From NCBI GenBank assembly GCA_001781095.1, contig MFKU01000010.1:14254-78253 (forward strand): a DNA stretch of 64,000 bases, in the 5' to 3' direction. A program made the position numbers and the translations under genes. Positions within the stretch are counted from its first letter, which is position 1, and each line of letters starts with the position of its first letter. The stretch is from Candidatus Kaiserbacteria bacterium RIFCSPHIGHO2_01_FULL_53_31 (GTDB lineage: Bacteria > Patescibacteriota > Minisyncoccia > Phycocordibacterales > Phycocordibacteraceae). The notes below the pieces were generated by a model. That model was given only the letters and a program-made list of their open reading frames with translations, did no database searches and had not been told where the DNA came from. Shown piece by piece: positions 637-63,190 of this stretch.

Positions 637-720
637 TGCGCCGGGTTGGATTCGAACCAACGTAGCCCAATGGGCGACAGGTTTACAGCCTGTTGTAATT
701 GACCACTCTACCACCGACGC
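637..720 (-). tRNA. tRNA-Tyr (anticodon GUA), type II with long variable arm
   Basis: Manual cloverleaf: acceptor GCGTCGG/CCGGCGC (one G-U pair), discriminator A, D-arm GTAG..TTAC, anticodon stem ACAGG/CCTGT, loop CTGTAAA (GUA), variable arm GCCC-ATT-GGGC, T-arm GTTGG-TTCGAAT-CCAAC. No encoded CCA. Confidence 0.85.
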
Positions 721-13953: not shown

Positions 13954-14994
13954 TCAGAGTGCTCGAATAGTATTTCGATACTGTATAGCCATGAGGAGGA
14001 GCGGGAGGTCGGGAGCAATAGTTGTCATCTGGCGAACGTAACTTGTGAGATGCGTCGCAAGGACAGGAATGATTTTCGGCGGGTTATCAGAAAGCCAAAA
14101 TGGTCTCGTGTCCATTGACTGCAGTACTTCCGTAAGAGCGGCAGCCTCTGAATCCCGTGTAAGCATGAAGATGGTTCGCGGCAGAGGATGTTCTTTGGCG
14201 ATTTCTCCAAGACCGCGCATGAGCTCTGCTGCGCCTGGTTTATCCCCCGAAGCGCGCGTCAATGCTTCGGAAACTGCAACGAGAAGCCCCTTACGTATGA
14301 GAGAGATCGTAACGAGTGGTCCCGACGCATCGACAATGATCGCGTCGCGCTCGTGCGGAAACGCGACGCGCATCGCCTGCGAGCGTACCGCACTGCCGGC
14401 CACGAGGAAAATGCGTTTGGTGTGATACAGCTTCTGCATGACCGAGAGAATGATACTGGAGACTTTTTCGGCAATAAGCGACGCAAGAATAATGATCGTC
14501 GCCTGACGCACACGTTTACCGTACGGATCGTGAACCTCGTATCCGTTCAGGATTGTGCCCAGTACGCTCATGTGGGAAATACTCTTCCCGGGGACTGCCG
14601 GGTTCATCTTGCGCAAAGTCTCGGCGACGATGCGTTTCGTAAATACGAACTCTTTCCTCTGCATAATGCGCTCGACGCGTATCTTCGTTTCCTGCCAGGG
14701 CGCATCGATCGACACAAGAACGGCATCAACACCGTTCGTACCTGTCGCGCGCACGAGCGCGGGAATACCATCGATAATCAGCGCTGTGCCGAGCAACTCG
14801 AGTGCGCGAAACATCGCGCGCTCGTGCGGTTCATTCTCTTGGATCTCGATAGGTAGACGTCGCGTATAGAGCAACACCGGCAACTCACTCTCGGAATATC
14901 GTGCGTACGCGCCCACGACTGAGCTCGCACCGATGTCGATGAGTGCCACAGACTCGCTCCGCCCGCCGCGGAAGAAATCTTTTAAAAGACCCAT
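13954..14994 (-). CDS. actin-like ASKHA ATPase (PilM/FtsA-like)
   Basis: N-terminal phosphate-1 motif VALIDIGASSV; ~350 aa as for PilM/FtsA; followed by a TM protein. Confidence 0.4.
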   Translation of the reverse strand: MGLLKDFFRGGRSESVALIDIGASSVVGAYARYSESELPVLLYTRRLPIEIQENEPHERAMFRALELLGTALIIDGIPALVRATGTNGVDAVLVSIDAPWQETKIRVERIMQRKEFVFTKRIVAETLRKMNPAVPGKSISHMSVLGTILNGYEVHDPYGKRVRQATIIILASLIAEKVSSIILSVMQKLYHTKRIFLVAGSAVRSQAMRVAFPHERDAIIVDASGPLVTISLIRKGLLVAVSEALTRASGDKPGAAELMRGLGEIAKEHPLPRTIFMLTRDSEAAALTEVLQSMDTRPFWLSDNPPKIIPVLATHLTSYVRQMTTIAPDLPLLLMAIQYRNTIRAL

Positions 14995-26546: not shown

Positions 26547-29384
26547 CTACCGGACTACTAGATTGATAATTTCCCCCGCCACATACACGATCCGCGTTGG
26601 CTCTTTACCCCCGAGTGCCATCGCTACGGCAGCAATTTTACGGGCCGCGGACACGGCATCAGCCTCGGGCGCATCTGGTGCGAGTGTTATCGAGCCGCGG
26701 CGTTTGCCGTTGACCTGCACCACAACCTCGATTTTAGTCGATACAAGAAGCTTCTCATCAAATTCTGGCCAGAGAGCGGTATGTATTGACTCTGTGTTTC
26801 CAAGCACTTCCCAAAGTTCTTCGGTAACATGCGGCGCAAACGGTGCTAACAATCGAAGATATTTGCTCCATTGTTCTTCTCCGATTGCCCCCTCCTTTTC
26901 CACGGCATTCAAGAAGATCATCATCTGGCTAACCGCCGTATTAAACTTGAAAGCCTCAATATCACTGCCGACCTTACGGATAGTCTCGTGCAAAAGAGTC
27001 TCGAAGCCCTTAACTGGCTCTTTGCGTACACGCTCGCGTAGATTCCAAAGCCGCTCGATGAATCGCGCAGTGCCCGCGATGGAGCTTGTGCTCCAAGCAG
27101 TCGTATTCTCGAACGGGCCCATGAACATCTCGTACATGCGGAAAGCATCAGCGCCATATTCCTCTACGACGTCATCCGGATTAATGACATTGCCGAGGCG
27201 CTTGCTCATTTTGCGTCCATCCTCAGCAAGGATGAATCCAAGGAATTCGAGTCGTGCAAAAGGTTCTGACGTACTCACCACACCAATGTCATAGAGGAAT
27301 TTGTGCCAGAACCGTGCATAAATAAGGTGACGAACCGCGTGGTCACCTCCGACGTACACATCCACCGGCGCCCAATACTTCTCTTTTTTCGATGACACGA
27401 GTTGATGTGCCTCGTGTGGGTCCATAAAGCGCAAGTAATACCAGGATGAACCAGCCCACTGCGGCATTGTATTGGTCTCGCGCTTCGCTGACCCACCGCA
27501 CTTAGGACACTTTACATTTACCCAGGCATCTATCTCTGCGAGTGGTGACTCTCCCGTCCCGGTCGGTTCGTAGGATTCAACTTCAGGTAGTACCACGGGC
27601 AAGTCTTCATAGGGTACGGGCACGACACCATCTTTAGGGCAGTGGACCACTGGAATCGGTTCGCCCCAGTAGCGCTGACGCGAGAAAACCCAATCGCGGA
27701 GCTTGTATCGAGTCACCTTCTTCCCTCCTACGGCTGCAACAATCTCGTCTTTAGCCTTTTCACTCTCCTGTCCATTAAACTGGTCTGAATTAGTAAGTAT
27801 TCCAGGTTCTGTCCAGACAAAATCATTATTATCGAGCAGATTGCGAGTGAAATCTCCCTCAAAAACGGTGAAGAAATCTTTTAGCTCATCTCTTTTCTTC
27901 CAGACGACCTCATGTAATGCTGCTTCCTTTTCATCCACAAGATCTCTCTCTTCGTTTTCAAGTTCAAAAAAGACGTAATGGAAATGCGCCCATCGGTTCT
28001 GTTTCTTCACGCGGTGGTAGAAGAATGTATTTATCATGACCTCTGGACGCTCGATATGTTTGAGATTCTTGTACCCTGTTTCTTCCCTTATCTCACGCCG
28101 CGCCGTCTCGACGTGATCTTCGCCATCATCAATGCCGCCAGTCACGAGCCCATGCATGAGTACATTTTTCCAGCTGATACAGAGATACGAATCGTCTTTA
28201 GGGTTCCGAACAATTGCACAGACTGCTTCGCGCTTCACGATCTCTTCGTCAGGTCGCAGTCTGGCATCACTTTCCTCCACTGCAACAAACTTAGGCTCCA
28301 CGACATGACGTACGGGTAGATTAAATTTCTGCGCGAATTCGAAATCGCGTTCGTCGTGTGCCGGCACGGCCATAATGGCGCCCGTGCCGTATGAGCCAAG
28401 AACGTAGTCAGCAACGAAGACAGGAATCTCTTCTTTTGTTGCTGGATTGATCGCCGTAACACCTTCTAGTTTAACCCCTGTCTTCTCCTTCCCTTCTGAA
28501 CCACGTTCAATTTCAGTTTTAGAAAACGCTGCCGTAACATACTCGCTCACTTCATGTGCATTCGTGATGTGCCCGCTAGTAGAGAGTTTCTCAATGAGCG
28601 CGTGTTCGGGCGCAAGTACTAGATACGTTGCACCAAATATCGTATCCGGACGCGTCGTGAATACCGATACTGTCTCCTCCCCCACTGCGAAGTTAATTTC
28701 TGCACCCTCTGAACGTCCAATCCAGTTGCGCTGTGCTTCTTTAATATGCTCTGGCCAGTTAAGTTGATCTAGGTCTTTGAGCATCCGGTCAGCATAATCA
28801 GTGATCTTCAGCACCCACTGCGGTAACTTCTTTTTTATTACCGGCGTTCCACAACGTTCACAGACGTTTCCATCAAGGTCCTCATTAGCGAGTCCCGTCA
28901 TGCACGAAGGACACCAGTTGATCGGCTCATCTGATTGGAATGCGAGCCCGTGTTCGAGCATCTTGAGGAAGATCCATTGTGTCCAATGGTAGTAGCTTGG
29001 ATCGGTCGTATTGATCTCTCGCGACCAATCATAGTTAAAGCCAATCTTCTCGAGTTGCGCTTTGAACGTCGCAATGTTCTGCTCGACTGCCTTTCGCGGA
29101 TGCGTCTTGTTCTTCAAGGCGAAGTTCTCGGCAGGGAGACCGAAGGCATCCCATCCCATAGGGTGCAGTACCGAGAAGCCGCGCATCTTTGAGAATCTTG
29201 AATAGATGTCAGTTGCGATATACCCCTTTGGGTGACCAACATGAAGTCCCTCACCAGACGGGTACGGGAACATGTCGAGCACATACTTCTTCTCTTTCTT
29301 TGAATCCTCTTCTGTTTTGTATAGATCGAGCTTCGCCCATTTTTCTTGAGCTTTTTTCTCTATTTCTGAATGGTCGTACGCCAT
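26547..29384 (-). CDS. leuS: leucyl-tRNA synthetase with embedded Nudix hydrolase domain
   Basis: HVGH and KMSKR motifs, editing domain. After VPAHDERDFEFAQKFNLPV a ~120-aa insertion carries a canonical Nudix box GGIDDGEDHVETARREIREETGY; 945 aa. Confidence 0.9.
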   Translation of the reverse strand: MAYDHSEIEKKAQEKWAKLDLYKTEEDSKKEKKYVLDMFPYPSGEGLHVGHPKGYIATDIYSRFSKMRGFSVLHPMGWDAFGLPAENFALKNKTHPRKAVEQNIATFKAQLEKIGFNYDWSREINTTDPSYYHWTQWIFLKMLEHGLAFQSDEPINWCPSCMTGLANEDLDGNVCERCGTPVIKKKLPQWVLKITDYADRMLKDLDQLNWPEHIKEAQRNWIGRSEGAEINFAVGEETVSVFTTRPDTIFGATYLVLAPEHALIEKLSTSGHITNAHEVSEYVTAAFSKTEIERGSEGKEKTGVKLEGVTAINPATKEEIPVFVADYVLGSYGTGAIMAVPAHDERDFEFAQKFNLPVRHVVEPKFVAVEESDARLRPDEEIVKREAVCAIVRNPKDDSYLCISWKNVLMHGLVTGGIDDGEDHVETARREIREETGYKNLKHIERPEVMINTFFYHRVKKQNRWAHFHYVFFELENEERDLVDEKEAALHEVVWKKRDELKDFFTVFEGDFTRNLLDNNDFVWTEPGILTNSDQFNGQESEKAKDEIVAAVGGKKVTRYKLRDWVFSRQRYWGEPIPVVHCPKDGVVPVPYEDLPVVLPEVESYEPTGTGESPLAEIDAWVNVKCPKCGGSAKRETNTMPQWAGSSWYYLRFMDPHEAHQLVSSKKEKYWAPVDVYVGGDHAVRHLIYARFWHKFLYDIGVVSTSEPFARLEFLGFILAEDGRKMSKRLGNVINPDDVVEEYGADAFRMYEMFMGPFENTTAWSTSSIAGTARFIERLWNLRERVRKEPVKGFETLLHETIRKVGSDIEAFKFNTAVSQMMIFLNAVEKEGAIGEEQWSKYLRLLAPFAPHVTEELWEVLGNTESIHTALWPEFDEKLLVSTKIEVVVQVNGKRRGSITLAPDAPEADAVSAARKIAAVAMALGGKEPTRIVYVAGEIINLVVR

Positions 29385-55167: not shown

Positions 55168-57120
55168 ATGGCTGGTTCTGAACTCTATGAAGGCCCGATA
55201 GCGATGACCCGCAAGGGTTTCGGCTTTTTTTCGATTGGCGAAGATAAAGAGGATCTCCTTATACCGCCTGAATCAACAAACCATGCCCTCTCGGGCGATA
55301 TCGTAAAGGTGACCCCCGCGGGAACATATCGCGACCCAATGGGAAAAATGCCGCCGCGAGAGGCTGGCACAGTAGTCGAGATCGTCTCGCGCGCCCGCGA
55401 GTCCTTCGTCGGTACACTCGTCCCATCTGAGGAACGGCCCGGAATCATTCTCCTCCAGCCTGACTACAAGCGGATGCATGTGCCACTCGAAGTGAGAGAT
55501 GCCCAAGATGCTCCTCTAGGCTATAAAGTCCTCGTTGAAATGAAGGGTTGGGACGACGATATTGCCTACCCATGGGGTGTCGTCACCGAGAAGATCGGCG
55601 AGGCTGGCGTGCATGAGACCGAGATGCGCGCGCTTGTCCTCGGCCAAGGATTCTCGAGTGACTTCCCTCCCGGTGTGATGAGTGACGCACACGACCTCGA
55701 GTTGAATGGCCGAACCCAAATCAAAGAAGAAGTTGCCAAAGGAACGCGTAGAGATTTCCGCGCTATCCCGACCTGCACCATCGACCCTTTTGATGCAAAA
55801 GATTTTGACGATGCACTCTCGGTGCGAAAGCTCGACGATGGGAATAGCGAAATTGGCGTGCATATCGCCGACGTCTCATTCTTCGTGAAGCCAAGCACAA
55901 ACCTCGACAAAGAGGCCTATGCCCGAGCAACAAGTGTGTACCTCGTCGACCGCACGGTGCCGATGCTCCCTGAGATTCTTTCAAATGACCTCTGTTCACT
56001 AAAGCAGGGTGAGGATCGCCTCTCCGTCTCTGCAGTTTTTACACTCGACAAAGACGCCAACATTGTGGACACGTGGTTTGGCGAGACTGTGATTCACTCT
56101 GCGAAGCGCTTTGTCTATGAAGAAGCTCAGGATGTCCTCGATAACGGCGAAGGGACGCTGCATGAAGAGCTCGCGCTCATGCTCGATCTATCGAAGAAGA
56201 TTCGCACCCGTCGTCAGGCGAAGGGTGCGATCGAATTCGACACCGTCGAAGTTAAGGTCGAGCTCGACCAAACCGGTAAGCCGATCGCGATTCGCTTGAA
56301 GGAGCGCAAAGCGACTAATCTCATGATCGAGGACTTCATGCTTCTCGCGAACGAGGCCGTGGCGAAGCATCTCTCAGATCTCACGAGTAATGGCGGCCCT
56401 CACTTCGCTTCGCTTTACCGCATCCACGATGAGCCAGACGCCGACCGGATCGAGAATCTAGCGAACCTTCTTAGGATTATGGGTTATCAACTTAAGACAA
56501 AAGCTGGAAAAGTCTCGGGCGCTGAATTAAATAAACTGCTCGATGCGGTGAAAGGCAAACCTGAAGAGTACCTCGTAAAGACAGCTACGCTTCGCTCGAT
56601 GAGTAAGGCAGTGTACGCGACACAGAACATCGGTCATTTCGGTCTCGCCTTTGATTTTTATACTCATTTCACTTCCCCGATCCGGCGCTACCCTGACCTC
56701 ATCATCCATCGCCTCATCAAAGCGCACGCCGGCGGCGACCTGATCACACCTACAGAAATGCAGGAGTTCGACAAACTCGCACTGCACGCATCAGAGCGCG
56801 AGGTGGCGGCATCCGACGCCGAGCGCGACTCAGTCAAGATGAAGCAGGTAGAATTTCTCTCGACAAAAATTGGCGAGACCTTTGACGCCGTTATCTCGGG
56901 TGTGACCGAGCGCGGTCTCTATGTCGAGGAGCAAACAACCCACGCTGACGGGATGATCATGATCCGTAATGTCGGTGATGACTATTTTGAATTTGACGAA
57001 AAGCATTACCGCCTCGTCGGCCGCCGCACGCACAAAGCCTTCCAACTTGGCGATCCTATCCGCGTCAAATTGATGGCCGCCCGCATCCCCGAAAAAGAAT
57101 TGGATTTTGTTCCCGCCTAA
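55168..57120 (+). CDS. rnr: ribonuclease R
   Basis: Cold-shock domains, RNB catalytic domain (IDPFDAKDFDDALS, HFGLAFDFYTHFTSPIRRYPD), S1 domain. Confidence 0.9.
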   Translation: MAGSELYEGPIAMTRKGFGFFSIGEDKEDLLIPPESTNHALSGDIVKVTPAGTYRDPMGKMPPREAGTVVEIVSRARESFVGTLVPSEERPGIILLQPDYKRMHVPLEVRDAQDAPLGYKVLVEMKGWDDDIAYPWGVVTEKIGEAGVHETEMRALVLGQGFSSDFPPGVMSDAHDLELNGRTQIKEEVAKGTRRDFRAIPTCTIDPFDAKDFDDALSVRKLDDGNSEIGVHIADVSFFVKPSTNLDKEAYARATSVYLVDRTVPMLPEILSNDLCSLKQGEDRLSVSAVFTLDKDANIVDTWFGETVIHSAKRFVYEEAQDVLDNGEGTLHEELALMLDLSKKIRTRRQAKGAIEFDTVEVKVELDQTGKPIAIRLKERKATNLMIEDFMLLANEAVAKHLSDLTSNGGPHFASLYRIHDEPDADRIENLANLLRIMGYQLKTKAGKVSGAELNKLLDAVKGKPEEYLVKTATLRSMSKAVYATQNIGHFGLAFDFYTHFTSPIRRYPDLIIHRLIKAHAGGDLITPTEMQEFDKLALHASEREVAASDAERDSVKMKQVEFLSTKIGETFDAVISGVTERGLYVEEQTTHADGMIMIRNVGDDYFEFDEKHYRLVGRRTHKAFQLGDPIRVKLMAARIPEKELDFVPA

Positions 57121-57191: not shown

Positions 57192-57220
57192 AAAGTTAGG
57201 ACATCGGATGTCCTAACTTT
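57192..57220. repeat. REP-like palindromic hairpin (left)
   Basis: AAAGTTAGGACATCGGATGTCCTAACTTT; overlaps the transposase stop codon. Confidence 0.7.
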
Positions 57221-57863
57221 TGTATTCCAGATAGTCGCTTTCTTGAGCAAGGCTTGGGTCATGAATAACTTCAACGATTGTCCGCTCATACTCTGACCGC
57301 GTCCCGAGCATTGGATTAAGCACATCGGTCCTAATAATTGACGGGAAATTTCGCACGCCCAAATAATCGAGATGACTGCTCCAGCGATAGTCGAGTAATG
57401 CTTCGAGAGCCTTTTTAGTATTTCTAACCTCGCCCGCGCGCCATTCTGGATGCACATAATCGAGAGGATTGAGATGTATATAAAATGGAATATAGAGAAA
57501 ATGCGCATCACGTTTTATTTGCACCTTGCGATATTTACCCTGCCAGAGAGCACCCGAGCGTTTATGCCGATTATTGAAATATTTTGTATAGCCCATATTA
57601 ATCTTTTGCATAAACAGAGAAATCCCATTCTCGATACGTTCTGTAACGAGCAGATGATAGTGATTCTTCATTAAGCAATACGAATGGATATCGACGAGTT
57701 GTTCACGAGCATGATCTTCGCGCCGCTCATTCAGAATGTAATTCGGCGTCGTGTTGCGATCATTTAAGGCATACAGGTTGTGAATGAAGCGGAGACGGTC
57801 GTGCTTGTCTGTAACGATATCTCGTTTCTCCACCCCACGCCCAATAAGGTGCCAGAATTCCAT
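57213..57863 (-). CDS. Y1 HUH transposase (REP-associated tyrosine transposase / IS200-like)
   Basis: HUH motif NHYHLLV; catalytic tyrosine region GYTKYFN; 216 aa. Confidence 0.7.
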   Translation of the reverse strand: MEFWHLIGRGVEKRDIVTDKHDRLRFIHNLYALNDRNTTPNYILNERREDHAREQLVDIHSYCLMKNHYHLLVTERIENGISLFMQKINMGYTKYFNNRHKRSGALWQGKYRKVQIKRDAHFLYIPFYIHLNPLDYVHPEWRAGEVRNTKKALEALLDYRWSSHLDYLGVRNFPSIIRTDVLNPMLGTRSEYERTIVEVIHDPSLAQESDYLEYKS

Positions 57864-58403: not shown

Positions 58404-60650
58404 TTACTTCGCAACAGCGACCGCTTCGTCGAACTTTACACTTAGGAGTTTTGAGACGCCATCCCCACCCATAGTGACGCCATAGAGGATCCCGGCGCGG
58501 CTCATAGTCTCGCGATTGTGCGTGATCACGATAAGCTGCGACTTCTTCGCGAGGTTTCCGATCATGTCGCCGTAGCGACGGCTGTTCGCTTCATCGAGCG
58601 AAGCATCGGTCTCGTCGAGGATGAGGAACGGTGGTGGGTTCACCTGACTCATGGCAAAGATGAGCGCAATGCTGGTAAGCGCTCGCTCGCCGCCCGAGAG
58701 CTGCATCAGGGAGCGCACCTTCTTCCGAGGAAGATTCACTGAGATTTCAATGCCGGCCTTACCCTTCGTAGCATTGGCGGAGAAGGGGTCGCTTGATTCT
58801 TCCAACTCTTCAGATTCGTCCAATTCCTCAACTTCGGGCTCTTCCAAAGTCAAACGTGCATTGCCACCGCCGAACATAAGCGCGAAATATTCGTTAAATG
58901 ATTCATTTACTTTCGAGAGACCCTCAGTGAAATGTTTAGCGAGTTCAGTATCCAAATCTTGAATGAGTGCACCCAAGCTCTCGGCCGATTTCGCGAGGTC
59001 GTCGAGCTCCCGCGCGAGAAATGTCTCACGCTCCGACACCTCTTTGTGCTCGTGACGGATCTCTTCGCCCGCACCGCCAGCTTCTTCGAGGCGAATCTTG
59101 ATTCGCTCAAGTTGCCGCGCGCGATCTTCCTGGCCGCTATGCTCGTCCTCAGATATCGACCCACGCGGTTCGTACGAGATCCCTTGAGTACCGACGAGCG
59201 CTACCACTTCCGCCTTATCGGTATCTAGCCGCCCCGTCAACAGTTTCAATTCGCGCTCGCGCGCATCCGCGTGCGTTACCTCACTTTCTTCATGCGCTTT
59301 CGTCTGGGCAAATTCGAGAATGTGCCGACGCAACTCCCTACCCGTCTCGTCGTATGCCGTAAGTTCTTCCCTCGCACGCAGGAGCGCAAGTTTCGCTTCT
59401 TCAAGATTCTTGGAGAGCATAGTTTCTTTTTCTCCTAATTTCTTCTGCTCTTCTTCGAGCGCATACACCGACTGCTCCTCATCGGTGAGCCGATCATCGC
59501 CGACGATAAACCTGTCGACGAATGCTTTTATCGTCGTATGTAACGACTTCAGCGCTGACAAAATGGCGTCCGATGTACTCGTCTGCCGGACTTGCCGTTC
59601 TGCTTCTTCAGCGAGCGCGACGAGCTCTTCTCGAGAGATGCGCGCATAGGGATCGGTGCCGATCTTCGTGCTGCGCTCCTTCGCCGCCGCCAACGCTCCC
59701 TCGATTCTCCCGAGCTCGCGTGCGAGCGCGCCCCGCTCGCTCGATAGGCGATCCGCCGTCGCCTCTGCCTTACGCACTACCTCGAGACGCTTAGCGCCCT
59801 CCGCATCGGTCGTGGCACGCTCCTCAATCGCCGAGAGCTCGGCACTTGCGGCGGCGAGCCGTCCCGTGGCCAAACGTTTCTCTTCGGCGACCTTCACCTT
59901 CTCTTCCGCTATGCGCGTGTCCTCGATCGAGAAGTACATCTGCGCGAGCGTTATAAGTTTCTTCCGTAAACTGTCGGCGCGTTCAAGCTTCTCAACTTGT
60001 CGCTCGAGGAAACGCAGATGCGGCGCGAGTTCGCGTCGAAGTGAATTCACCTGTGCGATGTTCACTTCAGTCTTCTCAAGCTTCCGTTGTGCTTCAGTCT
60101 TTTTGAATTCATAGACCTTGAGCCCGAGCGCGTCTTCGAGCATCGTACGTCGCTCGCGCGCATTCGCCAGAAGAATCCTATCAGCTTCACCCTGCGAGAT
60201 GATGTGGTGGCTCGTCTCGCCGATGTTGGCACCCGCCAGCAGTTCTTCGATATCGCGCAAGCGGACCTTCGACCCATTGATCGAGTACTCGCTCGTCCCA
60301 TCACGGTGTACTACACGCTCAATCACCACTTCATCAAAATCGATATTGAACGTGCGCTTCCCATCCGTTCCGCCATCCGCCAGCCGGCGGATTGGATTAT
60401 CAAAAACAATCGCGACCGCAGCGCGATTCGAACGAGGCACGGAATGCGACCCGTTGAAAATAAGATCTTCAGCGCGTTTGCCGCGCATGCTCTTCATCGA
60501 CTGCTCGCCGAGCGCAAATCGGAAGGCCTCGGCAACATTACTCTTGCCCGACCCGTTCGGCCCCACAATCGCCGTCGTGGCCGATGAGAAATCAAGTACG
60601 GTCTTCCGTACAAAAGATTTAAACCCGACGATCTCCAGTCGCTTCAACAT
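58404..60650 (-). CDS. smc: chromosome partition protein SMC, minimal 748-aa form without recognisable hinge
   Basis: Canonical SMC N-terminus (RLEIVGFKSF...GPNGSGKSN...DLIFNGS) and C-terminus (LSGGERALTSIALIFA...LILDETDASLD...ITHNRETM). Conserved rnc-smc synteny. Only ~450 aa of coiled coil between the heads. Confidence 0.8.
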   Translation of the reverse strand: MLKRLEIVGFKSFVRKTVLDFSSATTAIVGPNGSGKSNVAEAFRFALGEQSMKSMRGKRAEDLIFNGSHSVPRSNRAAVAIVFDNPIRRLADGGTDGKRTFNIDFDEVVIERVVHRDGTSEYSINGSKVRLRDIEELLAGANIGETSHHIISQGEADRILLANARERRTMLEDALGLKVYEFKKTEAQRKLEKTEVNIAQVNSLRRELAPHLRFLERQVEKLERADSLRKKLITLAQMYFSIEDTRIAEEKVKVAEEKRLATGRLAAASAELSAIEERATTDAEGAKRLEVVRKAEATADRLSSERGALARELGRIEGALAAAKERSTKIGTDPYARISREELVALAEEAERQVRQTSTSDAILSALKSLHTTIKAFVDRFIVGDDRLTDEEQSVYALEEEQKKLGEKETMLSKNLEEAKLALLRAREELTAYDETGRELRRHILEFAQTKAHEESEVTHADARERELKLLTGRLDTDKAEVVALVGTQGISYEPRGSISEDEHSGQEDRARQLERIKIRLEEAGGAGEEIRHEHKEVSERETFLARELDDLAKSAESLGALIQDLDTELAKHFTEGLSKVNESFNEYFALMFGGGNARLTLEEPEVEELDESEELEESSDPFSANATKGKAGIEISVNLPRKKVRSLMQLSGGERALTSIALIFAMSQVNPPPFLILDETDASLDEANSRRYGDMIGNLAKKSQLIVITHNRETMSRAGILYGVTMGGDGVSKLLSVKFDEAVAVAK

Positions 60651-60924: not shown

Positions 60925-60966
60925 CGGGCGCGACATCCTTCGAGGATGCCGCGCCCGGTTTTGTAA
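60925..60966 (+). terminator. rho-independent terminator
   Basis: CGGGCGCGACATCC-TTCGA-GGATGCCGCGCCCG then GTTTTGTAAT. Confidence 0.6.
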
Positions 60967-61016: not shown

Positions 61017-61709
61017 TTACTCCCAGTGCATCGATGCCAAACCGGCCTGAGCGGCGGCCTGTTCTGCCTCCTGCTTACTCTGCCCTTCGCCGTGGGCGAT
61101 TTCTTCGGAGCCGATAAAGACACCAATAGTGAAGCGCTTGTCGTGATCGGGGCCGACTTCGCCGAGTGTTTTATAATTCGGTGTCACCCCACGCTTCTCC
61201 TGAGCGAGTTCCTGGAAATGGCTCTTAGCGTCTTGGTACGCACGCTTCGCGATGACGTCATCGATTTTTCCGTACAGATTCGCGGCAATAAATTTCTCTG
61301 CGCTCTCGTAGCCCAAGTCAAGATAGATTGCACCAATAATCGCTTCAAAGGTGTCTGCGAGTATCACGTCGCGTGCGCGGCCAGTATCGCGCGCTTCACC
61401 CTTTGACAGCAATAAAAAATCATTGACCCCGAGCTTCTGCGCACTCCCGGCGAGCGAGACGGTATTCACAAGCGCAGCACGAAAATTCGTCAATTCCCCT
61501 TCGGGCTTGGTGGGAAATTTCTTGAAAAGGAAATCGGTAACGGCGAGCTCCAGCACCGCGTCTCCGAGGAACTCGAGACGTTCATTATGATTCCCTGCAT
61601 AGTCTCGATGTTCATTCAGGTATGAACGATGCGTGAACGCCTCGATAAGGAGGTCGAGCTTATTGAAAGACAAACCGATACGGCTCGCGAAGCTGGAGAA
61701 ATCAGGCAT
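61017..61709 (-). CDS. rnc: ribonuclease III
   Basis: ERLEFLGDAVLELAV signature; C-terminal dsRBD. Confidence 0.92.
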   Translation of the reverse strand: MPDFSSFASRIGLSFNKLDLLIEAFTHRSYLNEHRDYAGNHNERLEFLGDAVLELAVTDFLFKKFPTKPEGELTNFRAALVNTVSLAGSAQKLGVNDFLLLSKGEARDTGRARDVILADTFEAIIGAIYLDLGYESAEKFIAANLYGKIDDVIAKRAYQDAKSHFQELAQEKRGVTPNYKTLGEVGPDHDKRFTIGVFIGSEEIAHGEGQSKQEAEQAAAQAGLASMHWE

Positions 61710-61768: not shown

Positions 61769-62695
61769 CTAAATCCTCGTGGCCTGTGGCTGACTAGCCT
61801 TGGTGGCGCTCGCGTGATCGAGAAGCTTCTGGACAGCCGATGTCACGATGGGGAGCATGTCATCATAGAAATTGAGATCAATGATGTCCTGCAGACGGAA
61901 CCATTTTGCATCGTCGAGCCCACCGCTCTTCTTGAGCACGAGCGGCTCGAAGTCGCATGCCGCGAGGAAGAACCATACGTGCTTGCACACTCTCCCCTTC
62001 TCCGGATGTGAAGCGACATACTCATTCTCGCCGATCTGACTCTCGATTTTCCCATCGAGACCGAGCTCTTCTTTCAGCACACGCGCCACCCCGACCTCGG
62101 GCGATGGATCCTTATCGATATGTCCTTTCGAGAGTGTCCAGTGACCGAACACGTCGTGCACGAGCGCGAGATAGTATTGCCCGTCGTGCTTGGCATACGC
62201 GATAGCTCCCGCCATTTTCTCGAGCGGCAGTTCTTCACGCTTTACTTTCTTTTTGCCTTGTTCGTCCTTGCCTGGTTCGCCGAGCTCCTTATAGACGGCA
62301 CCGAGGACACCATTCACGAACCTGCCTGAAGAATCGCCACCAAAGGTCTTGGCGAGTTCGATTGCCTCATTGATCGCAACCTTCGCTGGCACTTGTGCGC
62401 GATCGGCGAACAATAATTCAAAGAGTCCGAGGCGCAGGATATTGCGATCGATGGGCGCGATGCGCTCGAGTGGCCAGTCAGGGGCGGCCTTCGCAATAAC
62501 TAAATCAAGATCCTCGCGCTTCGCGAGCACGCCTGAAAGGAGATTTTGTATAAATGGCTGATCGATGTCATCACCACCGAACTCAGCGACATTGCGCGCG
62601 AGAATCGCCGATGCTTCCTTCTCTGATGCGTGTGTCGTATCCCACTCGAAAAGTGTTTGAAGAACAACGGAACGCGCTAAGTGACGATTCGCCAT
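61769..62695 (-). CDS. nusB: NusB antitermination factor fused to a C-terminal Nudix-like domain
   Basis: N-terminal NusB (ARSVVLQTLFEWD ... AINEAIELAKTFGGDSSGRFVNGVLG). C-terminal ~140 aa has a Nudix fold with a degenerate box GHIDKDPSPEVGVARVLKEELGL; start taken at MANRHL. Confidence 0.75.
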   Translation of the reverse strand: MANRHLARSVVLQTLFEWDTTHASEKEASAILARNVAEFGGDDIDQPFIQNLLSGVLAKREDLDLVIAKAAPDWPLERIAPIDRNILRLGLFELLFADRAQVPAKVAINEAIELAKTFGGDSSGRFVNGVLGAVYKELGEPGKDEQGKKKVKREELPLEKMAGAIAYAKHDGQYYLALVHDVFGHWTLSKGHIDKDPSPEVGVARVLKEELGLDGKIESQIGENEYVASHPEKGRVCKHVWFFLAACDFEPLVLKKSGGLDDAKWFRLQDIIDLNFYDDMLPIVTSAVQKLLDHASATKASQPQATRI

Positions 62696-62771
62696 GGAAA
62701 GATCTATGTGCCTAGTATAGCAAATCGAACGCTTGCACAAGCGTCAATTGTGCAAAAACGTTTCCTTGTGC

Positions 62772-63122
62772 CTACGCGCCTCCACCGAAGCCGCTACGCG
62801 CCTTCGGTCGGCCGCCGATACCAACTATTTTCCCAAGGATACCCTTTGAACTCTTCGCCTCTGCATTCGCGTGTTCGTGTGCGTGGTCGTGACCGTGTTC
62901 GCCTATCGGTTCAGCCTTCGTGACCTTCTTGGAAACTGTCGCACCTTTTGCTTTAACTATAAAAATTTGCTTGCCGCGATACATGCCGGTCGACTCGTCG
63001 ACACGATGTGGGAGGCGGAGATTCCCGCTTTCCTTATCAACGACGGATTTCGTCGCCGAGAGCGCGTGGTGCGACCGGCGGTTGCCAGTGTGACCTCGGG
63101 TATGACGCATGCGTACTGACAT
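62772..63122 (-). CDS. rpmF: 50S ribosomal protein L32 with His-rich C-terminal extension
   Basis: MSVRMRHTRGHTGNRRSHHALSA...SGNLRLPHRV..YRGKQI is bL32; extension EPIGEHGHDHAHEHANAEAK. Confidence 0.75.
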   Translation of the reverse strand: MSVRMRHTRGHTGNRRSHHALSATKSVVDKESGNLRLPHRVDESTGMYRGKQIFIVKAKGATVSKKVTKAEPIGEHGHDHAHEHANAEAKSSKGILGKIVGIGGRPKARSGFGGGA

Positions 63123-63150
63123 GCGTGGCACTCTAGCACATGCGTAGGAT

Positions 63151-63190
63151 AAATACAAAAAGGGGTCGTAGCGCGTTCGCTACGACCCCC
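63151..63190 (-). terminator. rho-independent terminator upstream of rpmF
   Basis: GGGGTCGTAGCG-CGTT-CGCTACGACCCC then TTTTTGTATTT on the minus strand. Confidence 0.55.

Follow-up and report, generated by a model that had tools for sequence, protein, structure and literature searches.

A conserved fusion of NusB to a Nudix domain with a degenerate catalytic box in Patescibacteria

The DNA analysed here is a 64,000-nucleotide stretch (the window) of Candidatus Kaiserbacteria bacterium RIFCSPHIGHO2_01_FULL_53_31, covering positions 14,254 to 78,253 of the forward strand of contig MFKU01000010.1. Near its end lies a gene, nusB-nudix, whose product begins as the transcription antitermination factor NusB and continues in frame into a domain with a predicted Nudix fold. 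This second domain has lost two glutamates of its catalytic box, and it keeps the residues that correspond, by alignment, to the phosphate- and adenine-binding pocket of diadenosine tetraphosphate (Ap4A) hydrolases. We give about an even chance (a probability near 0.5) to the reading that the Nudix domain is a non-hydrolytic, or very poorly hydrolytic, pocket for adenine-nucleotide 5'-(poly)phosphates, which would provide NusB with a second binding function.

NusB is normally a small single-domain adaptor. With S10/NusE it recognises boxA on the nascent pre-rRNA and nucleates an antitermination and RNA-chaperoning complex, and fusions to NusB are informative about events around boxA. The proteins described here are already public and annotated solely as NusB. 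No published description of a NusB-Nudix fusion was found in the literature on NusB, Nudix proteins and Patescibacteria, the candidate phyla radiation (CPR), Parcubacteria or Kaiserbacteria, and NusB goes unmentioned in a large survey of the Nudix clan.

Domain architecture of the fusion protein

The gene product is the organism's NusB orthologue. The Pfam NusB model (PF01029) matches residues 7-136 (E=2e-35, 122.5 bits against a cut-off of 23.1) and the NCBIfam nusB equivalog TIGR01951 scores 127.1 bits against a cut-off of 88.35. The Pfam NUDIX model (PF00293) matches residues 176-274 (E=8.7e-11, 42.4 bits against a gathering score of 21.1), and the C-terminal 155 residues, searched alone, give a NUDIX match at E=1.8e-11. 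Among solved structures, NusB chains match the fusion protein at E values of about 3e-17 (E. coli NusB) and Ap4A hydrolases at 4e-4 to 1e-3. E. coli NusB residues Y18, D118 and F122, which we take to be positions implicated in S10 and boxA binding, align with Phe16, Asp121 and Phe126 of the fusion protein; F126 is invariant in the family, and F126, N128 and G129 as a group are invariant or nearly so.

An AlphaFold2 (AF2) model built from a 49-sequence alignment has a mean predicted local distance difference test score (pLDDT) of 91.8. It places seven helices at residues 4-138 (pLDDT >90) and a strand/helix/strand Nudix sandwich at residues 158-301, with strands within 158-192, the box helix at 199-211 and more strands and helices besides. 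Confidence is low in the linker, where the block 141-150 has a mean pLDDT of 51 and residues 145-147 fall below 50. When the model was compared with the Protein Data Bank (PDB) by Foldseek, the NusB part matched 3imq_A with a root-mean-square deviation (rmsd) of 1.5 Å over 128 columns, and also 3d3c and 1eyv. For the Nudix part the top hit was the Nudix domain of NrtR (3gz8), and MutT1, CT771, the C. elegans Ap4A hydrolase and BdRppH were matched as well; the closest structural match, aq_158 (3i7u), aligned with a template modelling (TM) score of 0.82-0.86 at 25% identity. At E<=0.001 the two-domain model as a whole has matches to 520 PDB chains, and 46 of the 50 among the matches listed are Nudix proteins. 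On this sequence and model evidence, the N-terminal domain agrees with NusB in profile, predicted fold and conserved residues alike, and the C-terminal domain belongs to the Nudix superfamily by profile and predicted fold. The architecture proposed in a preliminary description of the window, a complete NusB followed in frame by a Nudix fold with a degenerate box, is thus borne out by Pfam, TIGR01951, AF2 and Foldseek together.

The reading frame starts at the ATG at 62695 on the minus strand, giving the N-terminus MANRHL. A longer alternative, a TTG at 62740, was considered and ruled out by the related reading frames, which begin at the MANRHL position. All 79 related loci with a readable N-terminus share this start (75 with MANRHL itself and four with one substitution; the masked N-terminus of locus L041 was left out), and the ATG at 62695 is taken as the start because of this agreement.

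The segment joining the two domains is strongly conserved. Among 81 aligned sequences, Tyr135, Lys136, Glu137, Gly139, Glu140, Pro141 and Lys143 are invariant and Gly142 is present in 79. Position 138 is L, I or M and position 144 is D, E, N or A, so that the motif reads YKE(L/I/M)GEPGK(D/E) and is followed by a Lys/Arg-rich stretch. The GEPGK(D/E) segment looks like a conserved short linear motif, for which RNA, S10, RNA polymerase and the Nudix domain itself are candidate partners.

Distribution of the fusion

A search with the fusion protein in a collection of 5.8 billion proteins returned at least 8000 matches. Among the matches listed, all 120 clusters carry both PF00293 and PF01029, are 295-326 residues long and 82-91% identical, and stem from independent NCBI, JGI, ENA and Logan assemblies. 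Where these proteins have a public name, it is no more than 'transcription antitermination factor NusB' (Kaiserbacteria, Paceibacteria, Minisyncoccia, Patescibacteria). An 8-sequence Nudix alignment was used to scan one genome for each GTDB species, and at least 586 loci that code for a Nudix-domain relative were detected in species-level Patescibacteria genomes. The best 80 of these loci were examined and underlie the related-locus counts in this text. In each of the 80, NusB lies directly upstream in the same frame, within one continuous open reading frame (ORF) of 295-333 codons; no stop or frameshift separates nusB from an independent downstream gene. The NusB-Nudix protein is therefore an old, clade-wide architecture in a large part of the Patescibacteria (Parcubacteria/Paceibacteria-type genomes), and the earlier proposal that this particular organism had grafted a Nudix module onto NusB is contradicted by its occurrence in at least 586 species-level genomes with conserved synteny.

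Four apparent exceptions were followed individually. In contig JACCDV010735530.1 (L082) an in-frame TAA (L082:941-943) stands at the conserved Tyr135 codon, and the interrupted gene was called as a separate NusB (133 residues) and a Nudix protein (P0140, 141 residues, TTG start); the TAA reflects a sequencing error or else marks a pseudogene or a split that is under way. P0133 (L084) starts 38 bases from a contig edge with MGEPD, inside the conserved linker motif, and is very likely a truncated fusion gene. P0128 (L083) starts 22 bases from a contig edge. P0163 (L081) is a real, intact standalone Nudix relative, and nusB is not adjacent to it. Given the in-frame stop of P0140, the contig-edge calls P0133 and P0128, and the position of P0163 away from nusB, the search for genuine split pairs of nusB and nudix genes yielded no evidence of such a pair as the ancestral state.

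The family also includes variant architectures. P0146 and P0157 have the order NusB-Nudix-Rho_N, and P0226 (577 residues) carries a long N-terminal extension, with a weak, sub-threshold match to a cold-shock domain, before NusB-Nudix. In P0249 a Nudix domain of the same subfamily with a degenerate box is joined to sigma-70 region 4 and a DnaA-C helix-turn-helix, an arrangement like that of a DNA-binding regulator.

Degeneration of the Nudix box

Against the canonical Nudix box GX5EX7REUXEEXGU, the box of the window protein reads GHIDKD-P-SPEVGVA-R-V-LK-EE-L-G-L and is incomplete. The glutamates at positions 7 and 16 are replaced by Pro197 and Val206; the arginine at position 15 (R205), the EE pair (E209, E210), Gly22 (G212) and Leu23 (L213) are kept. 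The preliminary description had noticed the valine at the first glutamate of REUXEE, which stands, and had counted it as a single loss, which does not, since the glutamate at position 7 is gone as well. The three metal-ligating glutamates of Ap4A hydrolases (E52, E56 and E103 of the C. elegans enzyme) align with Val206, Glu210 and Gly259, and this set is likewise incomplete.

The same state is found throughout the clade formed by the window protein and loci L001-L037, in which the Nudix domains of the 37 loci are 71-87% identical. All 37 have Val or Ile at position 16 and a residue other than Glu, mostly Pro or Ala, at position 7, and 34 have Arg at position 15; the typical box is GHIE.D(P/A)(S/T)P..GV.R(V/I)(I/V)KEELGL. 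Judged from these alignments, degeneration of the box is old and stable within the clade. In addition, the degenerate domain shows no decay, and purifying selection on it is as strong as that on NusB. Both domains have a pN of 0.13 in this clade and a saturated pS (median 0.77-0.79), and the median dN/dS is 0.077 for NusB and Nudix alike over 185 pairs, the pairs with finite dS among 703, since synonymous sites are saturated for most pairs.

Outside this clade the box varies widely. A perfect box (for example GKIGDNETVEEGT.REIKEEIGL) is carried by sister clades that are 57-72% identical, among them Adlerbacteria and Lloydbacteria genomes, and 24 of the 80 related loci are fully canonical. Among 42 diverse representatives at 50% identity, ten have Glu at position 16 (nine of the 37 that are full-length NusB fusions), and there is much variation at position 19. 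In a family sample of 116 sequences, weighted towards close relatives, Glu occurs at position 7 in 62, at position 16 in 32, at position 19 in 88 and at position 20 in 110. All five box residues are present together in only 28 of 115 members, and a neighbour-joining tree of these 115 has at least 15 changes to or from Glu at position 16. At the place of the third metal-binding glutamate, the one outside the box (C. elegans E103, human E110, aq_158 E97), 113 of 116 sequences have Gly, those with a canonical box included.

Position 16 is of special importance in characterised Nudix enzymes. The RExxEE motif binds metals, and in DHNTPase the Glu at position 16 ligates two of them, overlaying the corresponding Glu of Ap4A hydrolase and RppH (PMC5526541). 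The E53A mutant of E. coli RppH is inactive in vitro and does not complement in vivo (PMC6061791), and a check of the sequence places E53 at position 16 of the box. In the fusion protein the equivalent of E53 is Val206; its score with the RppH profile NF001936 is 15.4 bits against a cut-off of 118 (E=0.013). The solved human NUDT2 chain of 1xsa/1xsb/1xsc has Ala at box position 16.

Subfamily and conservation of the putative nucleotide pocket

An exhaustive HMMER search with the Nudix domain alone in 1.84 billion representative proteins gave only 732 matches at E<=1e-3, of which 133 reached E<=1e-10. Among the full-length ones, many are proteins of 280-360 residues aligned at about 150-300, that is, further NusB-Nudix fusions; by this measure the domain represents a distinct and fairly small subfamily. 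A profile of 37 diverse Nudix domains of the family was compared with the PDB. The best matches were aq_158 (3i7u, 6e-20), CT771 (4ilq, 4e-15) and Ndx1 (1vc8, 3e-13), followed by the C. elegans Ap4A hydrolase (1kt9, 2e-11), human NUDT2 (3u53, 1.6e-10) and Dcp2 (2e-9), with BdRppH also among the matches. Profile and model comparisons thus assign the domain to the Ap4A-hydrolase/aq_158 branch.

The enzyme aq_158 has long been known as a hydrolase of Ap4A, Ap5A and Ap6A. A 2026 study reported that it strips RNA 5' ends of triphosphates and diphosphates as well as of m7G, Np4, NAD, FAD and sugar caps (PMC13145063). These activities imply that the branch to which the Nudix domain belongs acts on 5'-5' polyphosphate linkages, RNA 5' ends included.

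In human NUDT2, the residues that bind the P1 phosphate and stack on the adenine include H37, K42, Y82 and K89, F128, and E130 (PMC4734340). The family was aligned with human NUDT2 (sequence verified), aq_158 and the C. elegans enzyme, and the roles of the pocket residues were transferred through this alignment. His185, corresponding to human H37, is variable (H, R, K or Y in 111 of 116). The other positions are nearly fixed: K190 (human K42) in 115, Y226 (Y82) in 114, K238 (K89) in 107 with Arg in five more, Y277 (F128) in all 116 and D279 (E130) in 110. Trp186 is also invariant in the 116 members. Residues assigned to phosphate binding and adenine stacking are thus 92-100% conserved in the family. 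The columns with at least 90% conservation, 25 of 139, contain five of six pocket residues (the set K190, Y226, K238, Y277, D279, W186); of five catalytic or metal positions, only one reaches this level as the canonical residue.

Possible role of the Nudix domain

The reading put forward at the outset is that of a pseudo-enzyme, and it is favoured because the catalytic glutamates are lost while the residues of the phosphate and adenine pocket are kept. The conserved Lys-rich linker would join NusB permanently to a Nudix domain whose ancestry lies in the Ap4A-hydrolase/aq_158 branch. Hydrolysis would have been lost with Glu7, Glu16 and the glutamate outside the box, and the residues contacting the first phosphate and sandwiching the adenine would have been retained. 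The likeliest ligand would be the 5'-triphosphate or NpnN-capped end of the boxA-bearing rRNA leader, or else a free dinucleoside polyphosphate or ATP-like signal, and its binding may tune or stabilise NusB in coupled rRNA transcription and RNase III processing. In relatives with a canonical box the same module may still process the RNA 5' end. We infer from these patterns the loss of catalysis, the binding of a ligand, the identity of that ligand and its effect on NusB. Precedents for a binding module are the non-catalytic, ADP-ribose-binding Nudix domain of NrtR (3gz8) and P0249, with its sigma-70 region 4 and DnaA-C fusion. A catalytically inactive binding module had also been suggested in the preliminary description, and the instability of the catalytic residues beside a fixed pocket speaks in its favour.

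Several points weigh against this pseudo-enzyme reading. The identity of the ligand is a guess. E209, E210 and R205 are kept, and D261/D262 are conserved near the lost third glutamate, so an unconventional active site is possible. A perfect box in about a quarter of the family, including the sister clades at 57-72% identity, suggests that catalysis is still under selection in some lineages, and the ancestral, perhaps general, role could be enzymatic. The residue correspondences come from sequence alignment alone, in a 116-sequence sample skewed to close relatives, and the invariant pocket residues could be conserved for the stability of the fold or for a protein interface.

The most serious alternative, though we consider it rather unlikely, is that the fusion is an active enzyme that deprotects RNA 5' ends. 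Tethered by NusB to boxA, it would convert the 5' triphosphate, or an Np4- or NAD-type cap, of the rRNA leader to a monophosphate, marking the leader for 5'-end-dependent decay after cleavage by RNase III. The closest solved homologue, aq_158, frees RNA 5' ends of triphosphates, of diphosphates and of many caps (PMC13145063), Dcp2 and BdRppH are among the matches, and the gene stands in an operon-like arrangement with that of RNase III. The canonical boxes of 24 loci and 28 family members, and the retention of E209, E210 and R205 in the window protein, also agree with activity. However, the window protein has Val at the position where Ala inactivates E. coli RppH (PMC6061791) and Pro in place of Glu7, the third metal glutamate is Gly259 here and Gly in nearly all members, canonical boxes included, and at least 15 changes of state at position 16 are unexpected for an essential catalytic residue. 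The preliminary description had proposed a cap-like surveillance coupled to antitermination. For relatives with a canonical box this remains plausible by way of aq_158 (PMC13145063), but the catalytic site of the window protein argues against hydrolysis.

It is unlikely, in our estimate, that the Nudix fold serves purely as a structural module, a protein-protein or protein-RNA scaffold that acts without nucleotide and might dimerise NusB or stand in for SuhB. Such a role is not without precedent: E. coli SuhB, a protein with an enzyme fold, is a stabilising subunit that turns the transient binding of NusB/E to boxA into a stable one (bioRxiv 10.64898/2026.03.17.712431), and Nudix proteins that are not enzymes form a recognised class (PMC5389931). 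The instability of the catalytic residues across the family fits this model, as does the GEPGKD linker, which is invariant though predicted to be disordered, as expected of an interaction motif. The fixed residues, however, are those that bind phosphate and stack on adenine in Ap4A hydrolases (PMC4734340), and these are better explained by a retained pocket.

A housecleaning hydrolase of Ap4A or other nucleotides, fused to NusB for co-expression only and with no link to transcription, is very improbable. The subfamily does consist of Ap4A/Ap6A hydrolases acting on free nucleotides, and in a reduced genome the fusion of genes can be neutral. Against this, hundreds of species, at a synonymous divergence that is saturated, have conserved the fusion, the linker motif and the synteny, and the catalytic set is incomplete in the window protein and in most members; the apparent splits P0140, P0133 and P0128 trace to an in-frame stop or to contig edges, and the standalone P0163 is not beside nusB. 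Finally, the joining of two genes by an assembly or sequencing error is practically ruled out by the continuous ORF in 80 of 80 loci and in 120 of 120 listed clusters from independent projects and by a linker conserved in frame, and contig L082 is a case of the reverse, with its gene divided by an in-frame TAA.

[quoted passage not shown] We regard this as a long shot. If it were true, NusB would contact the leader twice, at the 5' end and at boxA, and could steady the antitermination/RNase III complex without a SuhB-like stabiliser; rRNA antitermination would also be tied physically to the chemistry of RNA 5' ends, a connection not known before, in a major radiation of bacteria. More generally, a conserved NusB-Nudix fusion beside RNase III suggests that recognition of nucleotides or 5' ends is wired into rRNA transcription and processing in bacteria with reduced genomes, and its interest would rise if a link to the pre-rRNA 5' end or to an alarmone were shown. 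The family is also a natural series of catalytic sites, from canonical to degenerate, on a fixed pocket, and as such offers a clean system for following how an enzyme becomes a pseudo-enzyme.

Comparison with known systems

The first 138 residues of the fusion protein share signature and fold with E. coli NusB, as seen in NusB-S10 (3d3b, 3imq) and in rrnTAC (6tqn). In the PDB, canonical NusB chains have a single domain and about 130-155 residues, whereas the fusion has 308 residues, with the GEPGKD/Lys-rich linker and the Nudix domain added. As for the Nudix domain, W27, K31, Y67, K78 and Y115 of aq_158 (3i7u/3i7v) correspond to W186, K190, Y226, K238 and Y277 of the fusion. However, aq_158 is a standalone enzyme of 134 residues with a complete box (E38, R46, E47, E50, E51) and E97, and its E38, E47 and E97 are replaced in the fusion by Pro, Val and Gly. 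The asymmetric Ap4A hydrolases (NUDT2, the C. elegans enzyme 1ktg, CT771 and Ndx1) belong to the same subfamily by profile and share the Lys/Tyr/Lys set for phosphate and the aromatic pair stacking on adenine. Unlike the fusion, they are free-standing, catalytically complete and act on free dinucleoside polyphosphates.

E. coli RppH and BdRppH have the same Nudix fold and an RNA-related context, and BdRppH appears among both the sequence and the structure matches. The similarity of RppH to the fusion is weak, and the essential E53 of RppH is Val in the fusion. The residue pattern of the fusion would fit a sensor like NrtR (3gz8), in which a Nudix domain with a degenerate catalytic motif and a retained ligand pocket is joined to a nucleic-acid-binding module. 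This is an analogy of logic rather than of membership: the ligand of NrtR is ADP-ribose and its winged helix binds DNA, whereas the fusion has the RNA-binding NusB fold as partner and pocket residues typical of Ap4A hydrolases. In Dcp2, too, a helical domain, regulatory in that protein, precedes a Nudix domain, one that acts on RNA 5' ends by decapping, and the Foldseek alignments span 244-278 columns. These long alignments have an rmsd of 10-16 Å, however, the helical domains are unrelated and the catalytic box of Dcp2 is complete. The fusion is not homologous to NrtR or Dcp2 beyond the Nudix fold.

Genomic context

The features of the locus are collected in Table 1. The gene order RNase HII, L32, NusB-Nudix, RNase III, SMC is held in the 80 loci wherever the contig is long enough. 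The L32 gene lies upstream of nusB in 74 of the 80, mostly adjacent to it, and the other six begin within about 350 bases of nusB; rnc lies downstream of the fusion gene in 78, and the remaining two are cut by contig ends. Terminator-like hairpins, which are consensus matches only, flank L32, nusB-nudix and rnc, and for this reason the three genes are suggested to form one transcription unit, with the hairpin after rnc as the probable end of the operon. A search with Rfam at gathering thresholds found a single tRNA (637-720, minus strand) in the 64-kb window and no rRNA operon or boxA-bearing leader.

Table 1. Positions of the nusB-nudix gene, its parts and its neighbours in the window
Feature	Position	Strand	Details and basis
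nusB-nudix fusion gene	61769-62695	minus	308 codons and TAG stop at 61769-61771; ORF list, sequence
NusB domain, all-helical	62282-62695	minus	aa 1-138; PF01029, TIGR01951, AF2, Foldseek
Linker, GEPGKD motif then Lys/Arg-rich stretch	62225-62281	minus	aa 139-157; alignment of 81 sequences
Nudix-fold domain (predicted), Ap4A-hydrolase type	61793-62224	minus	aa 158-301; PF00293, family profile against PDB, Foldseek
Degenerate Nudix box GHIDKDPSPEVGVARVLKEELGL	62057-62125	minus	aa 191-213; direct sequence reading
Pro197 codon, replacing box Glu7	62105-62107	minus	sequence
Val206 codon, replacing box Glu16	62078-62080	minus	sequence
rpmF, ribosomal protein L32 with C-terminal extension	62772-63158	minus	upstream; PF01783, E=3.9e-11
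rnc, RNase III	61017-61709	minus	Ribonuclease III and dsrm Pfam domains; starts 59 nt past the nusB-nudix stop
Terminator-like hairpin upstream of L32	63190-63161	minus	consensus scan
Strong terminator-like hairpin after rnc	60925-60957	minus	15 pairs, 11 G-C; consensus scan

Two of the neighbouring proteins have unusual lengths. L32 has about 115-128 residues, of which the 56-position Pfam L32p model covers only residues 18-66; the rest is a long His-rich C-terminal extension that contains GEHGHDHAHEHANAE and is conserved, with tblastn matches of at least 100 residues in many related loci. The SMC-like protein (58404-60650, minus strand) has only 748 residues, and the SMC_N profile covers the N- and C-terminal halves of the head. 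Bacterial SMC proteins usually have about 1100-1200 residues, so the coiled coil or hinge is markedly shortened here, and SMC matches of similar length occur in related loci with enough downstream sequence. Between the SMC gene and that of RNase R (55168-57120, plus strand) sits an ORF for an IS200-like Y1 transposase (57213-57863, minus strand; PF01797, E=4.5e-9).

The Nudix insertion in LeuRS

A second Nudix module occurs in the leucyl-tRNA synthetase (LeuRS) of the window (26547-29384, minus strand, 945 residues), where it is inserted after the editing domain at residues ~384-511 (Pfam NUDIX, E=2.4e-13), as the preliminary description had stated. Its box, GGIDDGEDHVETARREIREETGY at 28071-28139, is fully canonical. 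The LeuRS and NusB modules are 22% identical (E=0.13) and have no relationship closer than the superfamily, and the nearest solved relative of the LeuRS insert is NudI (E about 1e-3). The possibility that the two are paralogues was considered and rejected because of this low identity and E value and the different nearest relatives in the PDB, which imply that they were acquired independently; their catalytic states differ as well, and they do not obviously form one system. Aminoacyl-tRNA synthetases can make Ap4A, and this ability lends interest to a hydrolase built into LeuRS.

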